A model generated the notes under the pieces. It had not been told where the DNA came from. It searched no databases and saw only the letters and a program-made list of their open reading frames with translations. Shown here one piece after another: positions 39,313 to 52,692 of a stretch of DNA of 64,000 nucleotides. The stretch lies in IMG/VR virus record IMGVR_UViG_3300025030_000076, positions 1 through 64,000 of that record. The stretch is one strand, 5' to 3'. The stretch's first letter is position 1, and each line of letters begins with the position of its first letter. This DNA comes from a virus. The translations under genes were made by a program, and so were the position numbers.

Positions 39313-40045
39313 ATTCGCGCATGATTTCGGTGAGGTCAGGCTTGCTGGATTTCCATTTACCGTTTTTATTCATCGCTTCTTGGTTGCCTTGCGCCTTCCA
39401 GCGTTTCAAAATCGCCTCGATGTACTTCCAGTTCCGGACGTTGTTTTTCACGGCTTCTGTAATGGCATCACAGACCCATTTGGGGCCGTAAGTCTTTTCA
39501 GCATCTTCCAAGAAGTCAGCAGATACTTTAGTCAATACACCAATCTCGCGTTGGTAAACTTTGAAAATGTCTTGAGTTACGTCCTCCTCCTCAATCTTTG
39601 AAGTAGTCTCTGCTGTAGTCTCTGTTAAGGAAAGTTCGGATTCGGACGTTCCATCGTCCGTTTTCGCACTTTCCGTTCGTTCGTTTTCAGACGAACGGAG
39701 CCAGCTAATCCACTCGTTTTCTAGAGTTTCCCAAAGGATTAGGTAATGAGTGGTTGGTGCGCCGTTGAATTTCTTTATTTGTGTTTCAGCCACACCCATC
39801 AATACAAGTGTCTCGGTTGCTTTTCGATGCCCGTATCTGGTAAGACAAAGTTCCTTTTTCCAGTCCTTATCTGACTTTGCTATCCACCCGCCCATTGTTG
39901 ATCTTGATGTCCAGTAGAGCAATTGAGATAGCATCATTGCCGCCTCAAGTGATCCTGTGAACTCGACAAACGGGCGGTGAACCGTAATAACATTATCTTG
40001 CCCTGTCATCGAAATAAGGGTTTGAAGTAGTGGGTTCTTGCTCAT
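39278..40045 (-). CDS. Replication initiator with C-terminal DnaD/DnaB_2 domain
   Basis: LSQLLYW wHTH, ETTAETT linker, AITEAV..NWKYIEAILKRW. Confidence 0.88.
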   Translation of the reverse strand: MSKNPLLQTLISMTGQDNVITVHRPFVEFTGSLEAAMMLSQLLYWTSRSTMGGWIAKSDKDWKKELCLTRYGHRKATETLVLMGVAETQIKKFNGAPTTHYLILWETLENEWISWLRSSENERTESAKTDDGTSESELSLTETTAETTSKIEEEDVTQDIFKVYQREIGVLTKVSADFLEDAEKTYGPKWVCDAITEAVKNNVRNWKYIEAILKRWKAQGNQEAMNKNGKWKSSKPDLTEIMREYAEEHGYGNAF

Positions 40046-40950
40046 GTGCTCTCCTGTTCCAGCGCGGCGGCGAGTTCCACGATCTTCGTGATCGGCTGTT
40101 TGCAAACGATACAGATGTACCCGCCGTGGCCATCACGGTCTACGCCGTGCCTGTTCCGCCAGCCGTGCTCCATGCACCAGAAGGCGCGGGGCGGGCTGAT
40201 GCGAATGCTCTCCATTCGCGTTTTGAGTGTTTGGTCGATATATGCCAACATTGGTCAATCCTTTCTCATGTAGCAAGTCACGCCCACTCGACTAAGCCAA
40301 ACGCCTGTTTTCAAGAGACTGCAAGACCCGCTTGCTCGGTGACCTATGCTCCCCTTGCCGCTCGCTAGAATTACGTTGTCGTCGGTAGCGATAAGAGACA
40401 ACTCACACGGCAGGGGTGGTAGCGGGCTGGTAGGGGCTTGTTTGTCTCTGGATGTTCTGCAACTTCGGCATACTTATCGAGAATTGCTAACGGCTATACA
40501 GCCCAAGCACCCTTTCGACCAGCCCGTAATACCTTATGTTTTGCCCCGCCGCTCCGGGGCTGTTGCTGGTGGAACCGCCAGCAGGGTTATGTAGTGGTTC
40601 ATACTGGTCGGTGGGGGCGGCGGCCAGCCGGCGGTTGCAATCATCTGTGTAATCTAATCAGATTAGATTTGCCAGCATGCCGCCGGTCACGCTTGTGGCT
40701 AAAGTCCGGGGTCTGCGTCGGAGAAGTCGTCAAACTCTTGGGTGTAGATAGAATATTGCTGCCCAGTTCCCAAGGGATGAACAAGATCGCCATACTCTTC
40801 TTCGGTGATCTCTATCCATAAATTACCAAATGGCGGATCGTCAAAATCCCTTGCTGTTACTTTTCCTGTATCAATATTCATCCAATACATGTCATCCTTC
40901 TTTCATGTTCGCGCCGGTGGTACGCGGAGTGGCTTAGGTAGTGCGAAGGC

Positions 40951-41154
40951 TCACGGCGTGTTGCCCGCTTCACCGCCATACTCGGCTTGAAGTTTCGCCT
41001 GGGCTTCTTTCAAAAGCGCGATTGCTTCATCAACAGTTTTCGCGCCTGTGATAGTTGCTTCATAGTTGAAACCCTTTGTATTCTTTTCAACTTTTACATT
41101 GATACGTGCGCCGTCATTATCTGAGTGGTGATAAATATGTTGTTCTTCCATCAT
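40951..41154 (-). CDS. Hypothetical protein
   Basis: RBS, operon position. Confidence 0.55.
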   Translation of the reverse strand: MMEEQHIYHHSDNDGARINVKVEKNTKGFNYEATITGAKTVDEAIALLKEAQAKLQAEYGGEAGNTP

Positions 41155-41220
41155 GTCCTTCTTTCATGTTTGCCCACCCCAGCGCGGCGAGCCAAGAAAC
41201 CGCGCTGGGGGATGATAGGG

Positions 41221-42333
41221 TTATAAAAGTTTTGGGCTTTCCGGTTCTGCGCTCACGGCTTCCATCTGGAAATCATGGGCAAGCACAATCCTGGCGGCTT
41301 CGACTTTCTCGTTCAGGATGGATTTTTCAATCACATAATCGAGTTGCTCTTTGGTCAACTCGCCCATAAACTTCTCTTTGCCGCCTTTGACTTTGACGAC
41401 AACCTGCTTCGCTTCGTCGTAGGTCATGGGGTGCAAGTCGGTTTCGGGTGGAAAATCTTTATCCAAATCGCCAGTGATGTCCTCCGGCTCTGCCTGTGCA
41501 GACAGGTCTTGCGTCACCGGAATATCCTCTGCCTCCACGTCAATCGGCTCATCTGCCCTCAATGCTTCCCTGAGTTGCGGAGAGTGTTCGATGCCGCTCT
41601 TATCCGCCCAATTCAAAAGCGCACGCAGGACGGTTTTCATTTCCATCGTGGGGCGCTTCTTTGGGTCTTTCCAGTTTGGGTTTTTTATCTTCCCGTCGTC
41701 GTCTAAATAGTCTTTGACATAGTTCATGGCGTGTTCTTCGATCTCGACGCAGGACATATAGACGGACTTCTCAAACCCCTTCGTGGTCTTGTAGTAGCCA
41801 AGCCAGCCTATTACTTTCTTGCCCTGGTCGCGTCGCACAGTGACATTGCGGGAATATGCGGCGTTATAGGATTGCGGCTGACCCATAAATCCATTTTCCT
41901 CCTGTACCGCGTGCAGTCCGGTCAATGGGTTTTCAAACACCTGCTGGCCTTCATAGATCGGCGCAACGTTGATGATCCAGTACTTGTTCGTTCGCATAGC
42001 GAGGAAGTAAACCCCAAAATAATGAGGCTGAAATTGCGCTTCCTTGATCCACTTCGGGGTCTGCCCTTTCGGGGCAATGTTTCGATTGCGAGGGATAAGC
42101 CATGCCTGTTTTACGGCGGGGTCACAGGATAAACCGAGAGACGCGGCGCGCAAGGCGGCTCTATGAATGCTCTGCGGCGTGCATTGCATCAAGTCCTCTG
42201 TGGAGGACGCGGCAATGATTACGCTTTGCACATAAGGCGCGGCATCTTTTCCAAGCAGGTTGACAAAATCCTGGAAGTTGTCAGGCTGGCGGAGGTATTC
42301 GGTAACTGGATTTTTTACGATTGCATTTTGCAT
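41221..42333 (-). CDS. recT: RecT-family ssDNA annealing protein
   Basis: CTPQSI..AASLGLS..AWLIP..AQFQ..W..MEMKTVLR. Confidence 0.85.
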   Translation of the reverse strand: MQNAIVKNPVTEYLRQPDNFQDFVNLLGKDAAPYVQSVIIAASSTEDLMQCTPQSIHRAALRAASLGLSCDPAVKQAWLIPRNRNIAPKGQTPKWIKEAQFQPHYFGVYFLAMRTNKYWIINVAPIYEGQQVFENPLTGLHAVQEENGFMGQPQSYNAAYSRNVTVRRDQGKKVIGWLGYYKTTKGFEKSVYMSCVEIEEHAMNYVKDYLDDDGKIKNPNWKDPKKRPTMEMKTVLRALLNWADKSGIEHSPQLREALRADEPIDVEAEDIPVTQDLSAQAEPEDITGDLDKDFPPETDLHPMTYDEAKQVVVKVKGGKEKFMGELTKEQLDYVIEKSILNEKVEAARIVLAHDFQMEAVSAEPESPKLL

Positions 42334-43068
42334 GATGTTTATTCCTTTCTTTCTGTGATTAGGGTTCAATTTCAGGCACACTTGCGAACCACTCCGCCGA
42401 TCCAAAGACGGGAGGCGGTTGCGGCGCTCGTGCGGCGGCTCGCTCGGCTCGCTCCCGACTCAATGTGCGGGATAGGTGCGCCCATTCGCTCAGGTTCTCG
42501 TCGCAGTCGTCCGCTTCAAATGCGGCATGTGCGTAGAGTTCCAGGAATATCAACTCGAAATAATCGTTGTCGGTCATGATCGCACCGCTTTCAGCAATCG
42601 GCGCATTCCCTCTGTGTCGTTTGCCAGGATAGCGTCAAAAAACGGGAGGCGTTTTTCAAGTTTGGCACGCTGGGGGTCTGCGTAAATGTGCGCCTTGATC
42701 TGCTCGCGCTCCATCTCGAAGCGGGCGAGTGTCGCCTGATGAGTGGCAGCTTCTTTGGCCTGCCCCGCCTTGAGATAAACAGTTATCCAGCCGCGGAGCG
42801 TCTTGATCTCTCTGTCGAGAATGTCAAGCTGCTCCTGCGGCGTGATCTCGCGTACAGGAACCTGCGCGAGGGAGATACGTTCGATTGTTTTGGATTTGTA
42901 GGGATGATACATTCTTGCCTTTCCGCCCTTTCCCATTTTCCACGAGTTGTGGTAAGATGGAGAAGAGCCTAATCCCGGAGAAGGATGATTGCTCAGTTGC
43001 CTGCCCGTCATTCACGTGACGGGCTTTTTCTATTCTATCACCAACATGACGCTGGCGATGTGTTTTGG

Positions 43069-43284
43069 TTACGCTTCCCCTTCCGCCTCCTTATCTGATG
43101 GATAGTATATATTCATCCATAAATTAATTGTTTGGTGGCTAACCCCGATGATCGCCGCGGCCCGTCTCAGCGAGTAACCTTTCTTTAGCAGGCTGCGCGC
43201 CCGCTTTGCATATTCGCGGCGGGTCTGTTCATATTCATTTCCCAGCACGCGGCGGGAGTGGGGGGTGGGGTATTTTTTTTCCAT
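43069..43284 (-). CDS. HTH regulator (Cro-like)
   Basis: GYSLRRAAAIIGVSHQTINLW. Confidence 0.8.
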   Translation of the reverse strand: MEKKYPTPHSRRVLGNEYEQTRREYAKRARSLLKKGYSLRRAAAIIGVSHQTINLWMNIYYPSDKEAEGEA

Positions 43285-43290
43285 GTCCTG

Positions 43291-43403
43291 ATATTACTAC
43301 GCCTTGATTGTGTTGTCAAGTAAATTTACTGTCATTTTTGTAACTTCTTTATAAACCAGTTTAGTAAACGCCCTTGACAAATTCAATGTTCCTGCTTTAT
43401 AAT
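43291..43403. promoter_or_regulatory. Divergent sigma70 promoters
   Basis: Minus: TTGACA (43319-43314)-17-TAATAT; plus: TTGACA (43374)-18-TATAAT (43398). Confidence 0.8.
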
Positions 43404-43428
43404 CCTGGTATAGAAAAGGAAAACGCAC

Positions 43429-43695
43429 ATGAACAAATTCGAAGAATTGCATGGTAGTCAAACACAAACTATCGCGGCGCTGGAAGCGGAGAATGCGAAA
43501 CTGAGGGAGTTTGTCAGTAAATTTTCTGACAACTTCAGCGATTGTGATTACTGTAATGGCAAAGGCGTTTTTTCGGATGATATGATTGAGTGCCGCGTCT
43601 GTAACGGGACCGGAAAACACATAACCTCAATTGGTGTGATGTTCGTGGAATTACCTGAAGAAGCCCGCGCCCTTCTCGCCCAGGAGCCAGCATGA
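43429..43695 (+). CDS. Coiled-coil + CxxCxGxG Zn-finger protein
   Basis: CDYCNGKG...CRVCNGTG. Confidence 0.7.
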   Translation: MNKFEELHGSQTQTIAALEAENAKLREFVSKFSDNFSDCDYCNGKGVFSDDMIECRVCNGTGKHITSIGVMFVELPEEARALLAQEPA

Positions 43696-43833
43696 CCCGC
43701 CTCACCTTCGACCCTCCCTCCGAATCCCCGGACGGCGATCCCGTCTGCCGGATATGCGATCACGAGATGGAGTACAACCCACTCACCCGCGAGTGGGAAT
43801 GCGTCCAGGATCACGACGCGCTGGAAAACGAAG

Positions 43834-44028
43834 ATGAAATACCGACCTGATCTCACGGACTACCTGCCTTGCATCGAAGCACTTGCAGATAAATTGAATG
43901 AGGATGCGATCTACAAAATGAGCAGGACTGATGCGGTAAAAATCGCCCTGGAAAAGGCACTTGAGAAAGTCGTGCCTGATGTTGTAATAAACAAAAAGCG
44001 GAAAAGGTACATCAAGCTGGATTTTTGA
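43834..44028 (+). CDS. Small ribbon-helix-helix-like protein
   Basis: MSRTDAVKIALE. Confidence 0.5.
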   Translation: MKYRPDLTDYLPCIEALADKLNEDAIYKMSRTDAVKIALEKALEKVVPDVVINKKRKRYIKLDF

Positions 44029-44114
44029 AAATGAGTGCGACGATGTACACTCCGCTCATACCCTAGTTAGACCCCTGTCTTGCTGGCAGGGTATCACCCA
44101 AAAGGAGAAAAAAC

Positions 44115-44402
44115 ATGAGCGCAGCAAGTGATTTGATTGAACGAATGGAACGCGAAACAGGTCTGCGGATTGATTCTGATGACCCAAACAATATGGCAAT
44201 GGCTGGTTTATTCGGCGCAGTTGCCCGCATGATGGGCAAGTCAAGCCACGATGAGCGCGATGATGTTGTGGCTGGTCTCTTGGTCATGCACCAAATGACC
44301 CCAGAGTATCGCAATGAACAAGAGAGTAAACAAATGATTGCTTCTCTTTTGTCCAGTGGTCTCTCCCCTGATGATATTCGCAATATGTGGGGCGGGGTCT
44401 AA
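44115..44402 (+). CDS. Cassette 1 hypothetical protein
   Basis: AAGGAG RBS; stop TAA lies in the R'' box, the canonical cassette layout. Confidence 0.75.
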   Translation: MSAASDLIERMERETGLRIDSDDPNNMAMAGLFGAVARMMGKSSHDERDDVVAGLLVMHQMTPEYRNEQESKQMIASLLSSGLSPDDIRNMWGGV

Positions 44403-44487
44403 CAAACGCTTGCAGTGGACTTGGCGGTACGGTGTGTCTTTTTGCGAAGGTTACGAACCGCCAAGCCACTAAAGCGAACCGTTCGGC
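44397..44487 (+). repeat. attC site 1
   Basis: GTCTAAC..cttgcagtggacttggcgg..ccgccaagccactaaag..GTTCGGC. Confidence 0.85.
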
Positions 44488-44627
44488 GGCTACCTTGCCA
44501 GCCGAGAAGTGAGAAATAAATGGGTATTTATGAATGTAGTTGTTTGCCAGCAAATCTAAGCCCAAGCGGTGAATTTGAGTTGTGCGAAGTTTGCCGCCTG
44601 GAAGAAGAAAACGAAGATGATAACGCC

Positions 44628-44755
44628 GCCGAACAAAGCCTGCACCTGACGCTTGGGAGTCTGCGCCTAAAAAAGCAGTTTCCAAGCCGAAAGTTTTATC
44701 CACATCTCAAACCTTATCCAAGCCCACCAAGCGCAGGTAAAGCACACCGTTAGGT
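44628..44755 (+). repeat. attC site 2
   Basis: GCCGAAC..cctgcacctgacgcttgg..ccaagcgcaggtaaag..GTTAGGT. Confidence 0.85.
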
Positions 44756-44760
44756 GGCTT

Positions 44761-45387
44761 ATGGCTAAATTTGATACGAAGTTTGCACACGCAAGAGAAG
44801 ATTGGGAAACTCCCGATAGTATCTTCAAACCGTTGGAGGCTGAATTTGACATCGTGATTGATGTTTGTGCTTCCGAGCATAACAAGAAGTGTTCACTAAG
44901 ATATACCATTGAGGAGAATGGTCTTTTGCAAGATTGGTCACAGTGGCATGCGTGTTGGATGAACCCGCCATTTGGTCGGCAATCTGTGTGGGTCAAAAAG
45001 GCTTACACGGAAAGCCTGCGAGGAGCAACGGTTGTCTGTCTACTTCCTGCCCGCACTAATACTAATTGGTGGCACGACTTTTGCATGAAAGGCACGGTTC
45101 GCTTTTTGCGTGGTCGTCCCATCTTTGTCGGAGCCAAACATGGTTTACCCCAGCCGTTGGCTGCTGTGATGTTGAGCGCCAGTGTGCTCGCGGCCGCATT
45201 GGTCAGGGTCAGAATGTTTGTGGCGGGTGGGATGATTGCCGCCGCCGTGATGTGCATTGTCATATTCCAGCCACCTAACACATGCGTGCAGTCGGACGGG
45301 GCTTACTGTGCGTGCAAAGAAGGGTTATCCTTCACGGTGGCGAATGGCACAAATTATTGTCTTGCGTGCGGTCAGCCCCGCCGCTAA
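44761..45387 (+). CDS. Phage DNA N6-adenine methyltransferase (Dam family) in cassette 3
   Basis: DWETP, DVCAS, WMNPPF, LLPARTNT.WW, FLRGR. Confidence 0.88.
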   Translation: MAKFDTKFAHAREDWETPDSIFKPLEAEFDIVIDVCASEHNKKCSLRYTIEENGLLQDWSQWHACWMNPPFGRQSVWVKKAYTESLRGATVVCLLPARTNTNWWHDFCMKGTVRFLRGRPIFVGAKHGLPQPLAAVMLSASVLAAALVRVRMFVAGGMIAAAVMCIVIFQPPNTCVQSDGAYCACKEGLSFTVANGTNYCLACGQPRR

Positions 45388-45402
45388 CGCAAGCCGTTAG
45401 CT
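45273..45402 (+). repeat. attC site 3
   Basis: ACCTAAC..gcgtgcagtcggacggggc..gccccgccgctaacgc..GTTAGCT. Confidence 0.85.
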
Positions 45403-45425
45403 GGCACTTTGCAAAGGATGTAATT

Positions 45426-45590
45426 ATGAGTATTGTCAGACCGCACGGAAGCAGTACCAAGATTTTTCGTGAACTACGTAAAACAAGATGTATTTTTTGT
45501 GGGTTCGGCGTGAAACTTGTTGTCAGGAAAACTGGCAACAAAGTCGAGAAAGTATGTCCGAAGTGTGGCAGGAAGTTTCAGAGGTCATGA
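45426..45590 (+). CDS. Cassette Zn-ribbon protein
   Basis: AAGGA RBS; CIFC..CPKC. Confidence 0.6.
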   Translation: MSIVRPHGSSTKIFRELRKTRCIFCGFGVKLVVRKTGNKVEKVCPKCGRKFQRS

Positions 45591-45594
45591 AGCG

Positions 45595-45684
45595 GGCTAA
45601 CAAATGCGTGCAGGCGACATGGGTGGGCGGCGGTCAAAATCGGACAGTCATAGCCACCCATGCGCCTAACGCAAGCCGTTCGGC
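45595..45684 (+). repeat. attC site 4
   Basis: GGCTAAC..gcgtgcaggcgacatgggtgg..ccacccatgcgcctaacgc..GTTCGGC. Confidence 0.88.
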
Positions 45685-45713
45685 GGCTACCTTATAGCCA
45701 GAAGGAGCAAACA

Positions 45714-45983
45714 GTGAAAATTTTAGGTGATACTATCGTGTGTAAGATCATGCACTCTCAATACTGTTTTTCGTGTGGTCGCCATTTGGCAACTGCCAAA
45801 ACAACCAAAGCCACCGAAAAGATTGTTTTGAAAAATGGCGGCTCGATCCGTAAAGATGGTTTTTATCGTGCGTACTGCGCGTCCCATGTGCCGCCCAACA
45901 CGGCGTGCAGCGGATTGGCGGATGAATTATTACCCGGTATTGCGTTGCCCGAATGGATTTTGAGAAATCCCGCCAACCGCTAA
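45714..45983 (+). CDS. Cassette hypothetical protein, reads through attC5
   Basis: AAGGAG RBS, GTG start, stop in the L' box. Confidence 0.6.
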   Translation: MKILGDTIVCKIMHSQYCFSCGRHLATAKTTKATEKIVLKNGGSIRKDGFYRAYCASHVPPNTACSGLADELLPGIALPEWILRNPANR

Positions 45984-45998
45984 CGCAAACCGTTAGCC
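45893..45998 (+). repeat. attC site 5
   Basis: GCCCAAC..gcgtgcagcggattggcgg..ccgccaaccgctaacgc..GTTAGCC. Confidence 0.88.
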
Positions 45999-46140
45999 CG
46001 CTCTTTCGGGCAAGGAAAATCAATGAACAAGAAACGAGAACTAATATTTATCACAGTATGGCTGGCTGGAGTCATAGGTTTGGTTTTGGTTGTATTACAG
46101 CTTCGCCAAATTTGTCCGTGTTGGTGGCTACCATGAAGCG

Positions 46141-46265
46141 GTCTAACAATGCGTGCAGTTGACGGCGGGAAGGCTCCCGGCTGTACATGCAACGCCTACC
46201 AATTAGAGAACTTCGGTTGTAAATGTGGTGCGGCAACCCGCCGCAACTAACGCAAACCGTTGGTG
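46141..46265 (+). repeat. attC site 6
   Basis: GTCTAAC..gcgtgcagttgacggcggg..cccgccgcaactaacgc..GTTGGTG. Confidence 0.82.
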
Positions 46266-46290
46266 CGGACTTAGTTAGGAAAGGTAAAAT

Positions 46291-46524
46291 ATGTATCTAA
46301 AACTCATGAATGATTACGAGGAAGAATTGAGACTAGCAGGAAGAAAAATTAAGGTAAACGATCATTTTGCAAGGTTTGATTTTGCAAGTTGGCTAGATAG
46401 ACAAGCCGCCCAACAACCGCTTGCACAGCCGACTGGTTGCTGGGCGTGTGGCGATAAAGGTATCATCCGCGCCGATGGTATCGCTATCAACTGTTCGGTT
46501 TGCAATCCCGCAACCAGCCGCTAA
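46291..46524 (+). CDS. Cassette protein with C-terminal Zn-finger encoded inside attC7
   Basis: CWAC..CSVC within the attC loop. Confidence 0.65.
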   Translation: MYLKLMNDYEEELRLAGRKIKVNDHFARFDFASWLDRQAAQQPLAQPTGCWACGDKGIIRADGIAINCSVCNPATSR

Positions 46525-46538
46525 CGCAAGCCTTGGGC
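46408..46538 (+). repeat. attC site 7 (degenerate R')
   Basis: GCCCAAC..ctggttgc..gcaaccag ccgctaacgc..CTTGGGC. Confidence 0.7.
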
Positions 46539-46673
46539 GGAAGCCCTGCAAGGTAAACGTGAAAGAAAGTTTTTGTGAATGCAATCACCCCCAAAGGTTT
46601 CATGGTACGCACTTGTCTGATGATACTTATGATGGTGCTTGCGTGCGTCAAACCTGCAAATGCCGTAAATTCC

Positions 46674-46790
46674 GCCCAACAAAGCGTGGGCTTTGGGCGT
46701 GGGCTAATTATCGTATTGGTGAATTTGTGTGGTCTTGCCGAGCGTGGTTGGATGTATAAATCGCCAGCCAGTAATGCAAGACCATTGGAC
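46674..46790 (+). repeat. attC site 8 (decayed)
   Basis: GCCCAACaaagcgtg..gtaatgcaagaccATTGGAC. Confidence 0.45.
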
Positions 46791-46811
46791 AGTGCGCTGT
46801 AAGGAGTAGAA

Positions 46812-47075
46812 ATGAACGTTGATTTAGAAAAAGAGATCGACACTGTTGCGGAATTCTGCTGTGACAATCCTAACTATAATGAGTTGCGCGAAGAAATTGC
46901 AACTCTTGTCCGTAAATATCATCAAATTGCTGGAGACTTGGCGTTGGAGGTTTGGAGATTGAGCCGCCCAACTACGGGTGCAGTTGACTCGGCGGAGATT
47001 CCCGAAGTTTTCAACCTGCAACCAAAAGTGATTGCAAAAGGTCGTATTGTGTTCGATGACCCGCCGAGCAACTAA
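46812..47075 (+). CDS. Cassette hypothetical protein, reads through attC9
   Basis: AAGGAG RBS. Confidence 0.65.
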   Translation: MNVDLEKEIDTVAEFCCDNPNYNELREEIATLVRKYHQIAGDLALEVWRLSRPTTGAVDSAEIPEVFNLQPKVIAKGRIVFDDPPSN

Positions 47076-47084
47076 TCGTTAGCT
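46966..47084 (+). repeat. attC site 9
   Basis: GCCCAAC..gtgcagttgactcggcgg..ccgccgagcaactaa..GTTAGCT. Confidence 0.75.
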
Positions 47085-47108
47085 GGCTCTTCAAGAAAGA
47101 AGGTAATC

Positions 47109-47321
47109 ATGGAAAAATGTGATCGTTGTGGTAAAAAAGTAAAGGTGTATCCAACTCATTATTCGGCATGGAATGAACTTTGCCTGCCGTGTATCAAACT
47201 CATGGGGCTTGGTTTGCCTGAAATGCAACCAGCTAACAAAAGCGTGGAGCCGACTTGTCCAAACTGCGGCGAACCATTGCATTATCACCCTACCGCCGAC
47301 TGCAAAGTAGCCCGCTCTTGA
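47109..47321 (+). CDS. Cassette Zn-finger protein spanning decayed attC10 (47231-47313)
   Basis: CDRC, CLPC, CPNC. Confidence 0.6.
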   Translation: MEKCDRCGKKVKVYPTHYSAWNELCLPCIKLMGLGLPEMQPANKSVEPTCPNCGEPLHYHPTADCKVARS

Positions 47322-47332
47322 AAGGATAGGTT

Positions 47333-47545
47333 ATGAACTATACAAAAGCGAATCAGGCTCTTGCTAATGAGTTCGGCGCAGGTCAGGTCGAAGTCCATAA
47401 GGCAAAGAAGGGTGATCCGTGGGAATACACACTCTGGTTCTTGGATGATGATCCTGCGCCTGGCGTAATCGAGAAGGCTAAGAAAATCGTTGGTCGCTTC
47501 GAGCCGTCTCGGTGGTTCGATAAGTTGAAATTCCATTCCGAGTAG
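47333..47545 (+). CDS. Cassette hypothetical protein
   Basis: RBS; ends just before an R'' box. Confidence 0.65.
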   Translation: MNYTKANQALANEFGAGQVEVHKAKKGDPWEYTLWFLDDDPAPGVIEKAKKIVGRFEPSRWFDKLKFHSE

Positions 47546-47547
47546 CG

Positions 47548-47675
47548 GGCTAACACGGGCTTGCACAGGGACGGCTTGCCAGCCGAACATCGCGTGCAGT
47601 GGACTTTGGCTACTGTGTGGCAAATTTTTTGTGGCTCTATATCGCCGCCAAAGCCACTAACGCAAACCGTTGGGC
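47548..47675 (+). repeat. attC site 11 (truncated left half at 47548 plus full site from 47582)
   Basis: GGCTAAC.., then GCCGAAC..gcgtgcagtggactttggc..gccaaagccactaacgc..GTTGGGC. Confidence 0.8.
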
Positions 47676-47702
47676 GGACTAGCTCAACAGAAAGATTTTG
47701 AA

Positions 47703-47927
47703 ATGAATTGTCAATATTGCAAACATTCGATAGACGAGCATGATAGTGGGGGATGTCATCGTAAAATTGACGGCGGTATCTGCGATTGTAATCATTCCCC
47801 AAACTATATCGCCGCCCAACAAATGCGTGCAGGCGACTTGGCTACTGGTTGCCCGTTCTGCGGTGTCTCCGCCGAAGATATTGCATTGCTCAATGAATCG
47901 CTTGCGCGTGAAACGCCAAGCGTCTAA
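47703..47927 (+). CDS. Cassette Cys/His-rich protein, reads through attC12
   Basis: CQYCKH..CDC, CPFC. Confidence 0.6.
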   Translation: MNCQYCKHSIDEHDSGGCHRKIDGGICDCNHSPNYIAAQQMRAGDLATGCPFCGVSAEDIALLNESLARETPSV

Positions 47928-47943
47928 CCCAAGTCCGTTGGGC
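47814..47943 (+). repeat. attC site 12
   Basis: GCCCAAC..gcgtgcaggcgacttggc..gccaagcgtctaac..GTTGGGC. Confidence 0.82.
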
Positions 47944-48074
47944 GGACTACCCGACTTTGAAAGGAAAATAAAATGTCAGACGAGAAAAAACAAGTAGTAA
48001 TTCACAGGGATGGCTCTGTGACCGAGCAAAGAAGTAATGATCTTCCAATTGTTTTGCTGCCATCAAAGCAAACC

Positions 48075-48186
48075 GCCCAACACGGCGTGGAGCCGACTGT
48101 TTGTCCTAAGTGCGGTCACGCTGTTGGTGGTCATAATGCACTTTGTCCAATTGGTAATTAGTGGCGGCTCACGCGCCCCGTTGGGC
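48075..48186 (+). repeat. attC site 13 (overlapped by ORF 47973-48161)
   Basis: GCCCAAC..gcgtggagccgac..gcggctcacgc..GTTGGGC. Confidence 0.8.
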
Positions 48187-48327
48187 GGACGCTCCGCCAG
48201 GAAGTGAGGAAGCATGAAAATTTGTGATGCTTGCGGAAAAGCATGTTATAGTTTTGCAACTTACAAAATATGTAGGCATATTGTTTGTAGCCGTCACGAA
48301 TATCCAGAAAGTTGCCCTGTGTGCGCC

Positions 48328-48451
48328 GCCCAACACGGCGTGCAGCGGACGACTGATGACGTCCGCGAAAATGTTGGTGTTTCTGAAAATGGTGAACTGC
48401 ATTCAGTAATGCGTGGAACAACCCGCCGCCGCTAACGCAAGTCCGTTGGGC
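48328..48451 (+). repeat. attC site 14 (overlapped by ORF 48214-48435)
   Basis: GCCCAAC..gcgtgcagcggac..gccgctaacgc..GTTGGGC. Confidence 0.82.
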
Positions 48452-48457
48452 TCCAAT

Positions 48458-48480
48458 AGCCCCCACTTAGGGGGCTTTGT
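48458..48480 (+). terminator. Terminator closing the cassette array
   Basis: AGCCCCC-actta-GGGGGCT-TTGT. Confidence 0.7.
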
Positions 48481-48555
48481 GTTATAATCAGAACGAATGT
48501 GCTCCCGCGTGATGGAACACCGGGAGCGTGATCTCAGCACAACGGAGGTGCTTCG

Positions 48556-49044
48556 ATGGAAGAGATTTTAACACGCTTTTGTCCAAGGTGCGGGGTAGAG
48601 CATAAATTATCGGAATTCAAAAGAGAACCCAAGCCAGGTAGATACCCAGGGTCATGCGTTTACAGCGGACGAGATGCGCGTATTTCTAAACCACCTAAAA
48701 CAAAAACAACAAAACCGCCTCCCGTTTATCTAGACGCCAGTTATCTTCCAAAAAAGAGGGTGGTAGGGTTATTTCCGCGTATTCAGACAATATTTTCCCA
48801 TTCTTACCGCGCTCGCGCCAACGGCAACAATGGGAAAATCATATATCAGGAATGGGAGGATCTGAAAGAAAAATATAACAATACCTGTCTGTGTTGTGGC
48901 AGACGATCTCCTGAAGTCGAAATAACTCTTGACCACGTACTCCCCTTGAGTATGGGGGGTAGGAATACTATTGAGAACGCCCAGCCGCTTTGTCTTTCTT
49001 GTAACTGCAAGAAAAGCACGAAATACATTGATTATCGCCCCTAA
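48556..49044 (+). CDS. HNH endonuclease (McrA-like)
   Basis: CLCC..TLDHVLPLSMGG.N..N.QPLCLSCNCKK. Confidence 0.9.
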   Translation: MEEILTRFCPRCGVEHKLSEFKREPKPGRYPGSCVYSGRDARISKPPKTKTTKPPPVYLDASYLPKKRVVGLFPRIQTIFSHSYRARANGNNGKIIYQEWEDLKEKYNNTCLCCGRRSPEVEITLDHVLPLSMGGRNTIENAQPLCLSCNCKKSTKYIDYRP

Positions 49045-49071
49045 ATCTAATTCGATGCCTATTGAATTAGA

Positions 49072-49100
49072 TTGACACGCGTAGCCGAAAGTGCTACACT
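49072..49100 (+). promoter_or_regulatory. Sigma70 promoter
   Basis: TTGACA-17-TACACT. Confidence 0.65.
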
Positions 49101-49274
49101 TTAGGAGGTAGTGGCCTCTTCCTTTAGACCGCCGCCACCCGAATACAGCAGAGAAACCCTGCCCGACAGGAAACTAAAAGAGAAATCGCCGCCAGCGTCG
49201 CCCTTTGCTAGTTTCTGCAACCCCCGCTTCCATTTCCCAAGTCGAAGCGGGAGTGTTGTTTTTATGGGGGAGTG

Positions 49275-49817
49275 CTATCTTACAAACACCTGCACCCAGC
49301 CCAGCACGTTCGTCGGATCTGTCACCCAGGTCGGCGTTACCCACTTGATCTCGAAATAATCCCCGGCCACTACCGCAATAGAGAGCGCCGTGTTTTGCAC
49401 GTGGAACGGCGACGCGTTCAAAGCCACGGCGCTTGAGATGGTTGTATCGGTCGTATTATTCAGGCGGAATGAGATTGTGCTTGTCTCACTCGTCCCGGTC
49501 GTGGCAACCAAAAAAACATCAGCGGCGACTACCGTCCCGGCGCGCATGACGTAAAGCCGCTGTATGGCTGCGGTTGTCCCAAGCGCTACATGCGGGAACG
49601 CGCCGAAGTAATAAGTCGTTGCATCAGCAGGATTGACGGAGGCGAAGCCCGCCGGGATTGCATAGCATCCCGCAACGGTGCGAGTATAGGTGGCGATGGA
49701 GGACACGAGCGCGACTTGGTTGCCCGAAATAGGGAATACTTCCGTTCCAACCAGCGTTGTCTTTTCGCCTGAGGGCGCGCCTGTGGTTGTGTTGGTGCTT
49801 ATATATCTGTTTGTCAT
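49275..49817 (-). CDS. Minor tail/fibre-type protein
   Basis: Thr/Ala/Val beta-rich, last gene of the tail operon. Confidence 0.6.
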   Translation of the reverse strand: MTNRYISTNTTTGAPSGEKTTLVGTEVFPISGNQVALVSSIATYTRTVAGCYAIPAGFASVNPADATTYYFGAFPHVALGTTAAIQRLYVMRAGTVVAADVFLVATTGTSETSTISFRLNNTTDTTISSAVALNASPFHVQNTALSIAVVAGDYFEIKWVTPTWVTDPTNVLGWVQVFVR

Positions 49818-49825
49818 GTAATCTC

Positions 49826-50047
49826 CTATGACCAGTTGATATGATCGCCGCTGTCATAGACGATAAAATCATCATTATCCCAAAGCAACTCAGCGCCCAG
49901 CACCGCCACTTCCGCCGGTCTGCCGTTGGACCAGCCCCCGGCCACGATGCGGGATACCGGCTCAAAGGTGAGCGGCGCGGAGAGATTGGTAATCATCTCG
50001 CCTATGGCGTGGAAGCCGATCCCGTCAAAGCCGATCATTTCAGCCAC
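49826..50047 (-). CDS. Small tail-module protein
   Basis: Overlaps upstream gene. Confidence 0.5.
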   Translation of the reverse strand: MAEMIGFDGIGFHAIGEMITNLSAPLTFEPVSRIVAGGWSNGRPAEVAVLGAELLWDNDDFIVYDSGDHINWS

Positions 50048-50757
50048 GCCTCTATCTGCACGTCATTGATAATCGTGTTCGCGTTCGCGCCCAAGTGGTT
50101 GTCGAATTGAAAACTAACCGCCTGCGTTGTTGTAACGTTGAACAGGAACGGGCCAAGAAAAATTGTATCTGCCAGGATGCCCATCGCGGTCGTGTATCCT
50201 TTGCGGGTTCCCTGCCCGTATTGGTTGCACTCGACATGGACATAACCATTGAAAGCCGACGCCGCGTCGAATGTGACGTGCATGGAGATACTCGCCCAGC
50301 ATGGATAATTAATCGTGATTACGTCGCTTGCCAGCGTTGCTAGGCCGTGTTCGTCTGTCCACTCGGTATCTACATCCAGCAGCGCATTATCCACTGTATC
50401 ATTGACCACCAATGTCGATCCGTAATAGGCTGCAAAGACCGGCAAGTCCTTTCTGCTAGGACAAATGTAAACTTCGGATAATCCCGTCAATACAATCTTT
50501 GCCCCGGCATTTGTTGATGATTCTACCGTTGTGCGTGCCACTGTATTTGTTGCAGTGTTATATGCCCCCAAACTTATCTCGGAGTGTGTCGGGCGGTTGG
50601 ATGTTGTCGAGTAGGTGATGATCCCAAAGCGCACGACTTCGCCGTTTGTGATCCCAGCCAGTTCCCAGGTATTGCAGCCGGGAACCGCGCCGGTAAGGAC
50701 ACAGTCGCTTGTGCCTGTGGTAGTTGAGTATTCTCTAGCTAAGTTTCTATATGGCAT
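50035..50757 (-). CDS. Minor tail protein
   Basis: STTTGTSD..L.GAV.G..RTTVESSTNAG motif. Confidence 0.6.
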   Translation of the reverse strand: MPYRNLAREYSTTTGTSDCVLTGAVPGCNTWELAGITNGEVVRFGIITYSTTSNRPTHSEISLGAYNTATNTVARTTVESSTNAGAKIVLTGLSEVYICPSRKDLPVFAAYYGSTLVVNDTVDNALLDVDTEWTDEHGLATLASDVITINYPCWASISMHVTFDAASAFNGYVHVECNQYGQGTRKGYTTAMGILADTIFLGPFLFNVTTTQAVSFQFDNHLGANANTIINDVQIEAWLK

Positions 50758-50788
50758 AAGTTCTCCATGAGTTTTCTAAACGGGTGGG

Positions 50789-51628
50789 TTATCTGGTATC
50801 CAGCCGCACGATTGCAAGCGAGCTTGTCAGGTCAACCGAGCCGTCGGCATTTCTAAAATTAACTGTCAGTGATGTCGTATGACTTGCTGTTTTATGGATA
50901 ATGATCGTCCTGAATTCAGGCAAGAAATCTGTGCCTGATCTGACAAAATGAAAGCGCGGATTACTGACACCGCCACTATCCAATTGTGTGGCAAAGTGCA
51001 TGTATAGATCATTTGTGGCGGTTGGTGGCGTGTTCCATGCTGTTGTAGCTTCTGTTCTATAAGTAATTGCATAAGTTCCTGGTACGGCCAGTGTGACCGT
51101 GCTGCCGGAAGTCCAACTCATCGAAGTCCCGGATTGGAATTGAATTGCGCTCCAGCTAATCGCCTGGTTGAATGAATTCAGGGTCTGGGATGCAGCCGAT
51201 AAAACCAGTGTATCTTTTGCTACTGCGGTTCCCATTGCCCCGGCCAGTTCCCCGGTATTGGTAAATCCATATTGCAACACGCCGTTTTCGTCCATCACGA
51301 CGAACGGGTAGGTATTGCCGTCTGAGAGCGTGAAGCCGAGCGACGAGAAACTCACGCCGGGAGGCGGTATCAGCGTCCCGTATTCGGTCTGTGTCCAGCC
51401 CTCTACTCCCATATAGATGACGTTGCCCACCCAGCCGACCTGCTGGGACAAATCCGAGAGTTGGTTCACCTGGACAATCGCCGCTTCCAATTCCGCGACC
51501 CTCTGTTCCAAGTCCTTGATACGGTTAAGGGCGTTGCCCGTGTAACCGACTAAATCAGATGGCGAGATGGCGCAGACGCCCGTATCTGTGGAAGAACCGC
51601 CGCCGCCGCTCTCATTCACGATTGCCAT
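50789..51628 (-). CDS. Tail tip/receptor-binding protein
   Basis: Coiled coil then C1q/TNF-like beta domain. Confidence 0.6.
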   Translation of the reverse strand: MAIVNESGGGGSSTDTGVCAISPSDLVGYTGNALNRIKDLEQRVAELEAAIVQVNQLSDLSQQVGWVGNVIYMGVEGWTQTEYGTLIPPPGVSFSSLGFTLSDGNTYPFVVMDENGVLQYGFTNTGELAGAMGTAVAKDTLVLSAASQTLNSFNQAISWSAIQFQSGTSMSWTSGSTVTLAVPGTYAITYRTEATTAWNTPPTATNDLYMHFATQLDSGGVSNPRFHFVRSGTDFLPEFRTIIIHKTASHTTSLTVNFRNADGSVDLTSSLAIVRLDTR

Positions 51629-52692
51629 TAGATGATCTCCAAATTAAGCGGTGCTTTGCCTATTGTCAGGTCGTTGTAATCCAGTGATAATATCCGCGCG
51701 GCTGCGCTAAACCCGAAGCCCCCGCCGGGCTTGAAACCAACTGTATTATCTCGCACGGTGATGGTATTGCCCGCCGCCAAACTGTCAAAAGTCTTGCCAA
51801 TATCCAGCGCGACGCGATGAAGTTTCATGCGCGGCGGCGAGTTATCCGCCGCTGTCTGCGCGGCGTTGGTAAGGGATGTTTGATCCGTGATGCCGGAGAA
51901 AACGATATTGGTCGCCAGCACCCCATATTTATCCACTGATGCCTGATTGACCCCCTTTGCGAAATAACGGCTCTCTTTCGTGGATGCCTGGGAATATCCG
52001 TAGATGACGTTATATGGTGTTCCCTGTTCCGTCAGGAGAGGCCCGCTGCCCTCGACATTGTCTCTTGTCAGTTCCAGGCGCGTGACCGCGCCCTTGCGCC
52101 TGTACAGGTTGGCGTATAGTTGCAGATTGCCGCGCCCATCTATCTGCCCGGTCACGTCCCAATCCATGCCGGAATTGGCACATAATTTTTTGATGTGGTC
52201 ATAGGCGGACGTGGCGAGGCTATCCCCGAACGTTTCGGGGATGTCCTCAATAACTCCCGGCTGAATGACAATATCGTCTGTAATCGTGTGTGCCATGTCC
52301 AGCATCTGCTTGAACATGCTCCCTGGTGTGCCGCTTATCTTGGTCAGCGGCATGGGGCGAAAGGTTAATATCGCTTCCGCGCTGTATGCGGTTGCGTTCA
52401 GAATCTTGTCAGGCCAATTCCTATCAGGCAGGATGATACCCGTCCAGTCCGGTAATTTCCCGTTTGCTGTTCCCGCCGCGTCCTTGGACGGGATATGTTC
52501 CACGAATACAAGGTTACCGTATTGCATGACCGTTTCTTCTTTTGGCGTGAACTTGTCCTTGAGATATGGCAAGCCTACGGAAAACTCCGCCTTGCCGAAG
52601 CTGTTCAGGAGCCATGAGCGTGGCGTCGTTGGTGCTTCTAGAAAACACAAAGGTTTGGAAAAATGGTCGAATATTCTCAAATTGCTAGGCAT
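51628..52692 (-). CDS. Tail hub (Tal-like) protein
   Basis: Follows distal tail protein; SVDKYG motif. Confidence 0.65.
   Translation of the reverse strand: MPSNLRIFDHFSKPLCFLEAPTTPRSWLLNSFGKAEFSVGLPYLKDKFTPKEETVMQYGNLVFVEHIPSKDAAGTANGKLPDWTGIILPDRNWPDKILNATAYSAEAILTFRPMPLTKISGTPGSMFKQMLDMAHTITDDIVIQPGVIEDIPETFGDSLATSAYDHIKKLCANSGMDWDVTGQIDGRGNLQLYANLYRRKGAVTRLELTRDNVEGSGPLLTEQGTPYNVIYGYSQASTKESRYFAKGVNQASVDKYGVLATNIVFSGITDQTSLTNAAQTAADNSPPRMKLHRVALDIGKTFDSLAAGNTITVRDNTVGFKPGGGFGFSAAARILSLDYNDLTIGKAPLNLEII

Follow-up and report, generated by a model that had tools for sequence, protein, structure and literature searches.

A 14-cassette integron-type array without an integrase in the early region of an uncultured tailed phage

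The stretch of DNA analysed here, called the window, covers positions 1 to 64,000 of the IMG/VR virus record IMGVR_UViG_3300025030_000076, a tailed phage record of 80,305 bp. Between 44043 and 48451, the window carries 14 gene cassettes in one orientation, preceded by an attI-like junction. These elements are true integron-type cassettes, as observed with an attC covariance model and from the footprint of the G|TT crossover. Very probably, the whole is a real integron array minus its integrase, and it serves the phage as an exchangeable accessory locus. An integron integrase (IntI) supplied in trans is a plausible agent of this exchange.

An attC site is bounded by two boxes, R'' (RYYYAAC) and R' (GTTRRRY), in which AAC and GTT are invariant. 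The site folds into an imperfect hairpin consisting of an R box, an unpaired spacer, an L box, bulges, a stem and a variable loop. Its structure is kept, and its sequence is not. In integron recombination, the crossover at G|TT transfers the six final bases of R' to the 5' end of the same cassette. A reading of 43200-48700 revealed a repeat unit of ~90-130 nucleotides (nt) that separates short open reading frames (ORFs). On the top strand, each copy starts with a YYYAAC box and an arm of the (G/T)TGCA(G/C) type. It ends with an CTAACGCAA(A/G)CC arm and GTTRRRY. Arm-pattern scans of the whole 80,305-bp record found 14 of these attC-like sites, only on the + strand and confined to 44397-48451. 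The array extends from a lone GTTAGACCCC at 44066 to position 48451.

We built a covariance model, R1, from 31 attC sites of bacterial Chloroflexota arrays only, several of them adjacent to IntI, and searched with the filters off. Within its alignment, 91.7% of the cells are paired and 13 pairs show compensatory changes. None of 500 shuffles reached the observed value, and the slid controls were far off too. R1 gave 12 full-length matches in the window (E 1.6e-7 to 8.7e-22) and a marginal one at attC8 (E 0.015). The remainder of the 64 kb held no further match below E 0.01. One site, attC10, was missed by the model because its R' is degenerate. So, the roughly 14 attC-like hairpins of the original prediction resolve into 14 delimited sites, with 12 strong matches, one marginal match and one degenerate copy. 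Rfam at gathering thresholds had no match in the window; seemingly it contains no matching attC family, and hence this search is uninformative.

The folding of the sites agrees with the model. The bottom strands form the expected hairpin, including the 5-bp L box and the bulged T and G/C on the R'' arm, at -17 to -29 kcal/mol. Across all the fetched loci (488 sites with 338 distinct arm sequences), the distal arms pair at -16.9 kcal/mol with their cognate arm, compared with -9.2 kcal/mol with a non-cognate one.

The second line of evidence is the crossover footprint. Over 76 arrays, the 7 nt of R'' beyond the core are complementary to the 5' end of their own cassette at 5.85 of 7 positions, with at least six in 74% of cases. 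The controls reach only 3.57/7 with the R' of the same attC and 3.53/7 with other sites. The window cassettes behave likewise. Beyond the AAC/GTT cores, the own-end match is 7/7 in cassettes 1-3, 6/7 in seven other cassettes (including 5, 6, 10 and 12-14), 5/7 in cassette 4 and 3/7 in cassette 7. Cassettes 8 and 11 seem matched by eye, uncomputed, if a 1-nt deletion in the upstream R' is accepted. The pairs quoted in the original prediction as the mark of circularised cassettes are all present. More precisely, they are GTTAGACCCC at 44066 with GGGGTCTAAC ending at 44403, GTTCGGCGGC at 44481 with GCCGCCGAAC, GTTAGGTGGC at 44749 with GCCACCTAAC, GTTAGCTGG at 47078 with CCAGCTAAC, and GTTGGGCGG with CCGCCCAAC. 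Its identification of integron-type cassettes is thus borne out by a model made from bacterial arrays and by the G|TT footprint.

The array belongs to a phage. TerL, portal, major head protein, tape measure and RecT were recognized by PHROG matches on the same contig. The array lies within the unique part of the record, with a leftward RecT operon on one side and tail genes on the other. Bases 1-26300 and 54808-80305 are 69-97% identical, which means that the record holds ~1.5 units of two variants; the phage unit is ~54.8 kb long. The CheckV value of 100% does not describe a single genome, because the record has ~1.5 units whose overlaps are only 69-97% identical. The 80-kb record could consist of two variants joined, or of two related phages in tandem.

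A record joined in this way, together with run assemblies that break at attC sites, gives some ground for suspecting an artefact. The array could then be an assembly chimera of a phage and a bacterial integron, or a set of non-integron repeats, such as terminator hairpins or REP (repetitive extragenic palindromic)-like elements. We find this hardly credible. Independently assembled contigs from other sequencing runs connect the array to both the left and the right phage flanks, which argues against a chimera. Relatives from other samples have the same architecture, and a terminally redundant phage contig (G001) has eight attC sites. A generic hairpin repeat is excluded by the covariance-model test and the crossover footprint.

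Profiles for tyrosine recombinases (PF00589, TIGR02249) and serine recombinases (PF00239) found no match anywhere in the 80,305-bp record. Accordingly, no intI gene stands beside the array by TIGR02249 and PF00589, and the locus is not a complete integron. A cluster of attC sites without an integron integrase is called a CALIN, and the array, with more than the two attC sites required and no integrase nearby, is one. The structural genes and the lack of any recombinase in the record uphold the original prediction of a phage without an integron integrase.

To place the attC type, we searched a set of genomes, one for each prokaryotic species, with the 19-nt L'/R' arm core. The same type was found in at least 119 bacterial genome stretches. 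Nearly all are Chloroflexota metagenome-assembled genomes (MAGs) of Anaerolineales and Anaerolineae, and the cultured Ornatilinea apprima has it too. At least two co-oriented sites are present in 65 of these fetched bacterial loci. Some of the bacterial arrays have integron integrases beside them, with 368-486 bits against TIGR02249 (cut-off 265); those of L220, L223, L251, L269 and L235 score 432-486. The attC2 of the window is nearly identical to the commonest bacterial Anaerolineae type, and the window type is that of the bacterial loci L185, L220, L223, L224 and others. By sequence comparison, the window repeats belong to the attC family of Anaerolineae chromosomal integrons. Judged from the attC type, the best guess is that the phage host is probably a member of Anaerolineae (Chloroflexota).

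One of these bacterial-type loci bears an archaeal label. L251 is a contig of a 'Candidatus Hadarchaeota archaeon' MAG, with a 470-bit integron integrase beside an Anaerolineae-type attC array. The label could reflect binning contamination or cross-domain carriage.

Relatives of the phage show what happens to the locus. A megablast of window positions 40000-52000 against GenBank phages gave no match, and the relatives sought via RecT amounted to one distant locus only. The backbone relatives came from loci fetched by the attC pattern. Of these, L148 shares the left flank at 73-94% nucleotide identity, promoter included, and the right flank at 78-87%. Between the flanks it has ten model-confirmed attC sites and different genes. 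It has a counterpart of attC14 only, 91% identical, which follows an unrelated ORF. Likewise, L166 has a right flank of 77-82% nucleotide identity, with several proteins at 88-92%. It keeps the first 15 codons of e3, the small gene before the junction, and the junction core. Its array has at least five model-confirmed attC sites (about ten cassettes by eye) and carries other genes. No window cassette occurs in either of these two relatives. A tblastn search of all the window cassettes against ~290 fetched loci gave matches limited to attC-encoded tails, with no common cassette gene. Judged by these alignments, the cassette locus turns over by whole cassettes, and the backbone stays. The refuting outcome named in the original prediction, a fixed gene order among relatives, was thus not observed, since L148 and L166 have flanks in common with the window and no common cassette.

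Some cassettes of L148 (5848-6420) and L166 (10560-9470, reverse strand) contain two or three ORFs and a consensus promoter of their own, which in L148 adjoins a palindrome. These self-promoted cassettes may be toxin-antitoxin-like or otherwise self-regulated.

Several points weigh against an active, exchangeable array. Across 14 studies, 20 runs from groundwater, soil and sediment contain the array almost whole, and its order is identical in four run assemblies. The phage lacks an integrase, and those four assemblies showed no product of recombination. The sites attC8 and attC10 are decayed and two R' boxes have 1-nt deletions, which would fit an array that is no longer fully active. The integrase of phage G005, which has the same junction, scores slightly under the TIGR02249 cut-off, and nothing closely related to it was found (36% identity for the next best match). 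A clear cognate enzyme for the extended junction motif was not identified.

The missing integrase, the decayed sites and the constant order across runs would suit a dead souvenir. It means that a piece of a host integron was acquired once by illegitimate recombination and is merely carried, with no exchange. We consider this explanation unlikely, for it does not account for backbone relatives with wholly different cassette sets that start from the same junction. Nor does it account for a junction motif and an e3 gene that recur in more than 14 viral contigs. Over 43300-48600, the short side of each of the 14 joints in the four run assemblies measures 20-27 nt and falls at an attC repeat, and many loose ends lie at attC borders. 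These joints are metagenome repeat artefacts, and they speak neither for nor against excised circles or rearrangement.

The cargo also tells against a passively carried piece. The median cassette length is 271 bp in the window, and bacterial arrays with this attC type have a median of 764 bp. Eight of the 14 window cassette ORFs run through attC and stop at the TAA within the L' box. We compared the reading frames in 190 viral and 232 bacterial attC sites from the fetched loci. The viral sites favour one frame, the one in phase with the TAA of L': it stays open across long loops in 70% of them, compared with 19% and 39% in the two alternative frames. It contains at least one CxxC in 27% of viral sites, and the alternative frames do so in 8% and 2%. 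No such bias is seen in bacterial arrays of this type. These differences in length, frame and CxxC content suggest that the array is more than a torn-off piece of a host integron.

The family of cassette 1 points the same way, being a phage gene elsewhere. It has 114 uncharacterised homologues of ~95 amino acids (aa). In eight other viral contigs, these are ordinary genes with no attC within 4 kb. Cassette 3 encodes a Dam-family DNA N6-adenine methyltransferase (PF05869, E 9e-29; phrog_111, E 6e-45), which, from its family, probably counters restriction. Thus, the view that the cargo is phage-like holds at least partly, for the methyltransferase and for cassette 1. The remaining cassettes encode mini-proteins of 33-95 aa, several with CxxC pairs. 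The Dam profile match of cassette 3 (44761-45387) stops at residue 127 of 208. Beyond it there is a hydrophobic stretch and then a Cys-rich tail encoded by attC3, an unusual C-terminal extension.

The array begins at a junction on the + strand at 44043-44072, ATGTACACTCCGCTCATACCCTA|GTTAGAC, with the crossover G|TT at 44066. It lies directly after e3 (43834-44028, + strand), a small non-cassette gene for a 64-aa, two-helix protein with a basic tail. The 26-nt junction motif occurs in 14 viral contigs, plus further e3 loci. In other viral contigs, the e3 stop codon is directly followed by ATGTACAyTCCGCTyAAACCATA|GTT and then by attC-bounded cassettes. The core of the junction (an AAC-type box, 4 nt, and GTTRRRY) resembles the junctions beside intI in the bacterial loci L220, L223 and L269 and in phage G005. 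From this resemblance, 44043-44072 can be called an attI-like site, so the locus would be more than a bare attC cluster. The idea that the junction motif is phage-specific was dropped, as bacterial loci also have the core next to intI. To date, restriction to viral contigs holds only for the extended motif with ATGTACAT. None of eight later-fetched e3 loci has an integrase within 7 kb.

Phage G005 (also L178, from another sample) presents the same platform with an integrase. It is clearly a phage, with portal, TerL and endolysin. Its integron-integrase relative has 349 aa and scores 258 bits against the TIGR02249 cut-off of 265. Its catalytic R, K, H, R, H and Y are in place, and so is the insert specific to IntI. 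In G005, intI is followed in order by an ORF, an e3 homologue (2409-2603), the junction as in the window, and six attC sites. G005 and the window have e3, the attC type and the junction motif in common. Going by this gene order and these shared parts, the window is the G005 platform minus the integrase.

Two further attC sites of G005, at 516-608 and 752-874, lie upstream of its intI (859-1908), and the second overlaps the intI start. The integrase gene is therefore inside the array and not at its head. For this attC type, intI and the cassettes share one orientation in G005 and in all ten further viral loci examined (L149, L143, L159, L112, L303, L308, L311, L313, L331 and L350). It is divergent from the cassettes in four of five bacterial loci (L220, L223, L251 and L269 are the loci named).

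The constant position of e3 raises another explanation. An unrecognised recombinase encoded by the phage, and not an outside integron integrase, could move the cassettes. The gene is small, conserved and always directly before the junction, and its fold matches nothing known: Pfam and PHROGs gave no match, and Foldseek against the PDB gave none below E 2. Even so, we judge such an enzyme very improbable. The sites are canonical and belong to an attC family associated with genuine IntI, and the phage has no tyrosine or serine recombinase. The e3 product has two helices in 64 aa and no catalytic motif. Moreover, the e3 homologues of G005 and L021 carry in-frame stops, and because of these interruptions we give e3 no role. 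A ribbon-helix-helix assignment for e3 was also dropped, given that the structure model (pLDDT 76.6) is a two-helix hairpin.

With these alternatives set aside, the integrase-less integron array would work as follows. An attI-like docking site is followed by 14 small, promoterless, one-gene cassettes, each closed by an Anaerolineae-type attC. The array sits at the end of a rightward early operon, and the cassettes are probably transcribed with the early genes from the early promoter. Gain, loss and reshuffling of cassettes would need an integron integrase in trans, because the phage encodes no site-specific recombinase. This enzyme could come from a chromosomal integron of the host, as the original prediction proposed, or from a co-resident phage such as G005. 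The array would then be the exchangeable accessory-gene locus of the phage, loaded with a Dam-type methyltransferase and many mini-proteins.

A broader version of this reading can be put forward only tentatively, with slightly less than even confidence. A Chloroflexota phage lineage might keep the integrase-less platform (e3, attI and array) as its standard accessory locus, refilled by the integrases of hosts or sister phages. The cassettes would be phage-specialised mini-genes that use attC as coding sequence. More precisely, the loop would provide a C-terminal tail, often with CxxC, and L' would provide the stop.

The original prediction overrated the novelty of the locus. Integron parts in phages have already been published, and were first reported in 2023, in a screen of 10,705 phage genomes (Qi, Rajabal, Ghaly, Tetu and Gillings 2023, Front Microbiol, PMC9892861). 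The text available to us gives three complete integrons, one In0 and 17 CALINs, with methyltransferase cargo, and reports that five of six phage attC sites recombined with IntI1. The window array is of the same kind as these phage CALINs. As described there, they have co-oriented attC-bounded cassettes, no IntI and DNA methyltransferase cargo. However, the window array is larger and cleaner, has an attI-like site and represents a recurrent platform in uncultured phages. TJE1, the only CALIN sized in that text, has three attC sites, compared with 14 cassettes and homogeneous host-type sites in the window. The window also goes beyond the CALINs as the text presents them, in that its attI-like junction is conserved in many viral contigs and its sister phages differ by whole arrays. 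Chloroflexota, the presumed host phylum, is not among the hosts that the text names. The complete integrons it lists in temperate phages (Vibrio anguillarum phage p16, P1 L-II and Shewanella M16-3) resemble the window as a platform carried by a phage. Conversely, the window phage lacks the integrase that these integrons and G005 possess.

Sedentary chromosomal integrons, those of Anaerolineae and the Vibrio type, are the other point of comparison. Their arrays, like that of the window, are long and made of small cassettes whose attC sites (~90-130 nt) are nearly uniform. The window differs by its lack of intI, its shorter cassettes, its eight of 14 ORFs that run through attC and its place in a phage early operon.

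These observations indicate that integron cassette exchange is not solely bacterial. Uncultured phages appear to organise fast-changing early accessory genes as host-type cassettes, which would make them both users and carriers of the cassette pool. With an attI-like site, 14 attC sites and no integrase, the locus offers a clean natural system for recombination in trans. It also allows an attC-based host assignment (Anaerolineae) for a phage group without cultured members.

The transcription signals of the original prediction were both found. A sigma-70-type promoter on the + strand at 43374-43403 (TTGACA, 18 nt, TATAAT; 12/12 consensus positions) heads the rightward array operon and is conserved in L148. 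A divergent promoter at 43319-43291 faces the opposite way. Downstream of the first promoter, two non-cassette genes precede e3 on the + strand: e1 (43429-43695), which is CxxCxGxG-like, and the small e2 (43692-43850). At the other end, an intrinsic-terminator-like hairpin with a stem and a T-tract (48458-48476, + strand) closes the operon.

The cassettes, all on the + strand, are given here with their covariance-model scores. Cassette 1 (44067-44487) has an ORF of 95 aa at 44115-44402, whose stop is the TAA of R'', and attC1 at 44397-44487 (57.7 bits, E 1.5e-13). The ORF of cassette 2 (44482-44755) covers 44520-44753 (77 aa), and its attC2 at 44628-44755 reaches 88.5 bits (E 8.7e-22). Cassette 3 (44750-45402) holds the methyltransferase ORF of 208 aa, the tail of which spans attC3 at 45273-45402 (51.1 bits). 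Next, cassette 4 (45397-45684) encodes 54 aa at 45426-45590, with two CxxC and a weak Zn_ribbon_8 match; its attC4 is at 45595-45684 (61.3 bits). Cassette 5 (45679-45998) encodes 89 aa at 45714-45983, followed by attC5 at 45893-45998 (66.4 bits). Two ORFs are present in cassette 6 (45993-46265), one of 37 aa at 46023-46136, which is hydrophobic, and one of 33 aa at 46149-46250, within attC; attC6 is at 46141-46265 (70.9 bits). The 77-aa product of cassette 7 (46260-46538; ORF 46291-46524) takes a CxxC...CxxC from the attC loop. Its attC7, at 46408-46538, has an R' without the G (46.1 bits).

Cassette 8 (46534-46790) has an ORF of 66 aa at 46559-46759 and the degenerate attC8 at 46674-46790 (16.6 bits, E 0.015). 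Cassette 9 (46782-47084) encodes 87 aa at 46812-47075, with attC9 at 46966-47084 (35.2 bits, E 1.6e-7). A zinc-ribbon-like protein of 70 aa is encoded at 47109-47321 in cassette 10 (47079-47313). The attC10 of this cassette, at 47231-47313, has a degenerate R' (GT-AGCCCGC) and a present R''/L'' arm, and gave no model match. Cassette 11 (47309-47675) also encodes 70 aa (47333-47545). It shows an additional R''-like arm at 47548 and has its attC11 at 47582-47675 (67.2 bits). The last three are similar in size: cassette 12 (47670-47943; ORF 47703-47927, 74 aa; attC12 47814-47943, 42.5 bits), cassette 13 (47938-48186; ORF 47973-48161, 62 aa; attC13 48075-48186, 39.0 bits) and cassette 14 (48181-48451; ORF 48214-48435, 73 aa; attC14 48328-48451, 58.4 bits).

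Between the array terminator and the tail genes, the window has a gene for an HNH endonuclease (PF14279, PF01844) at 48556-49044. L148 and L166 lack it at the corresponding place, and it resembles a mobile insertion of the free-standing kind.

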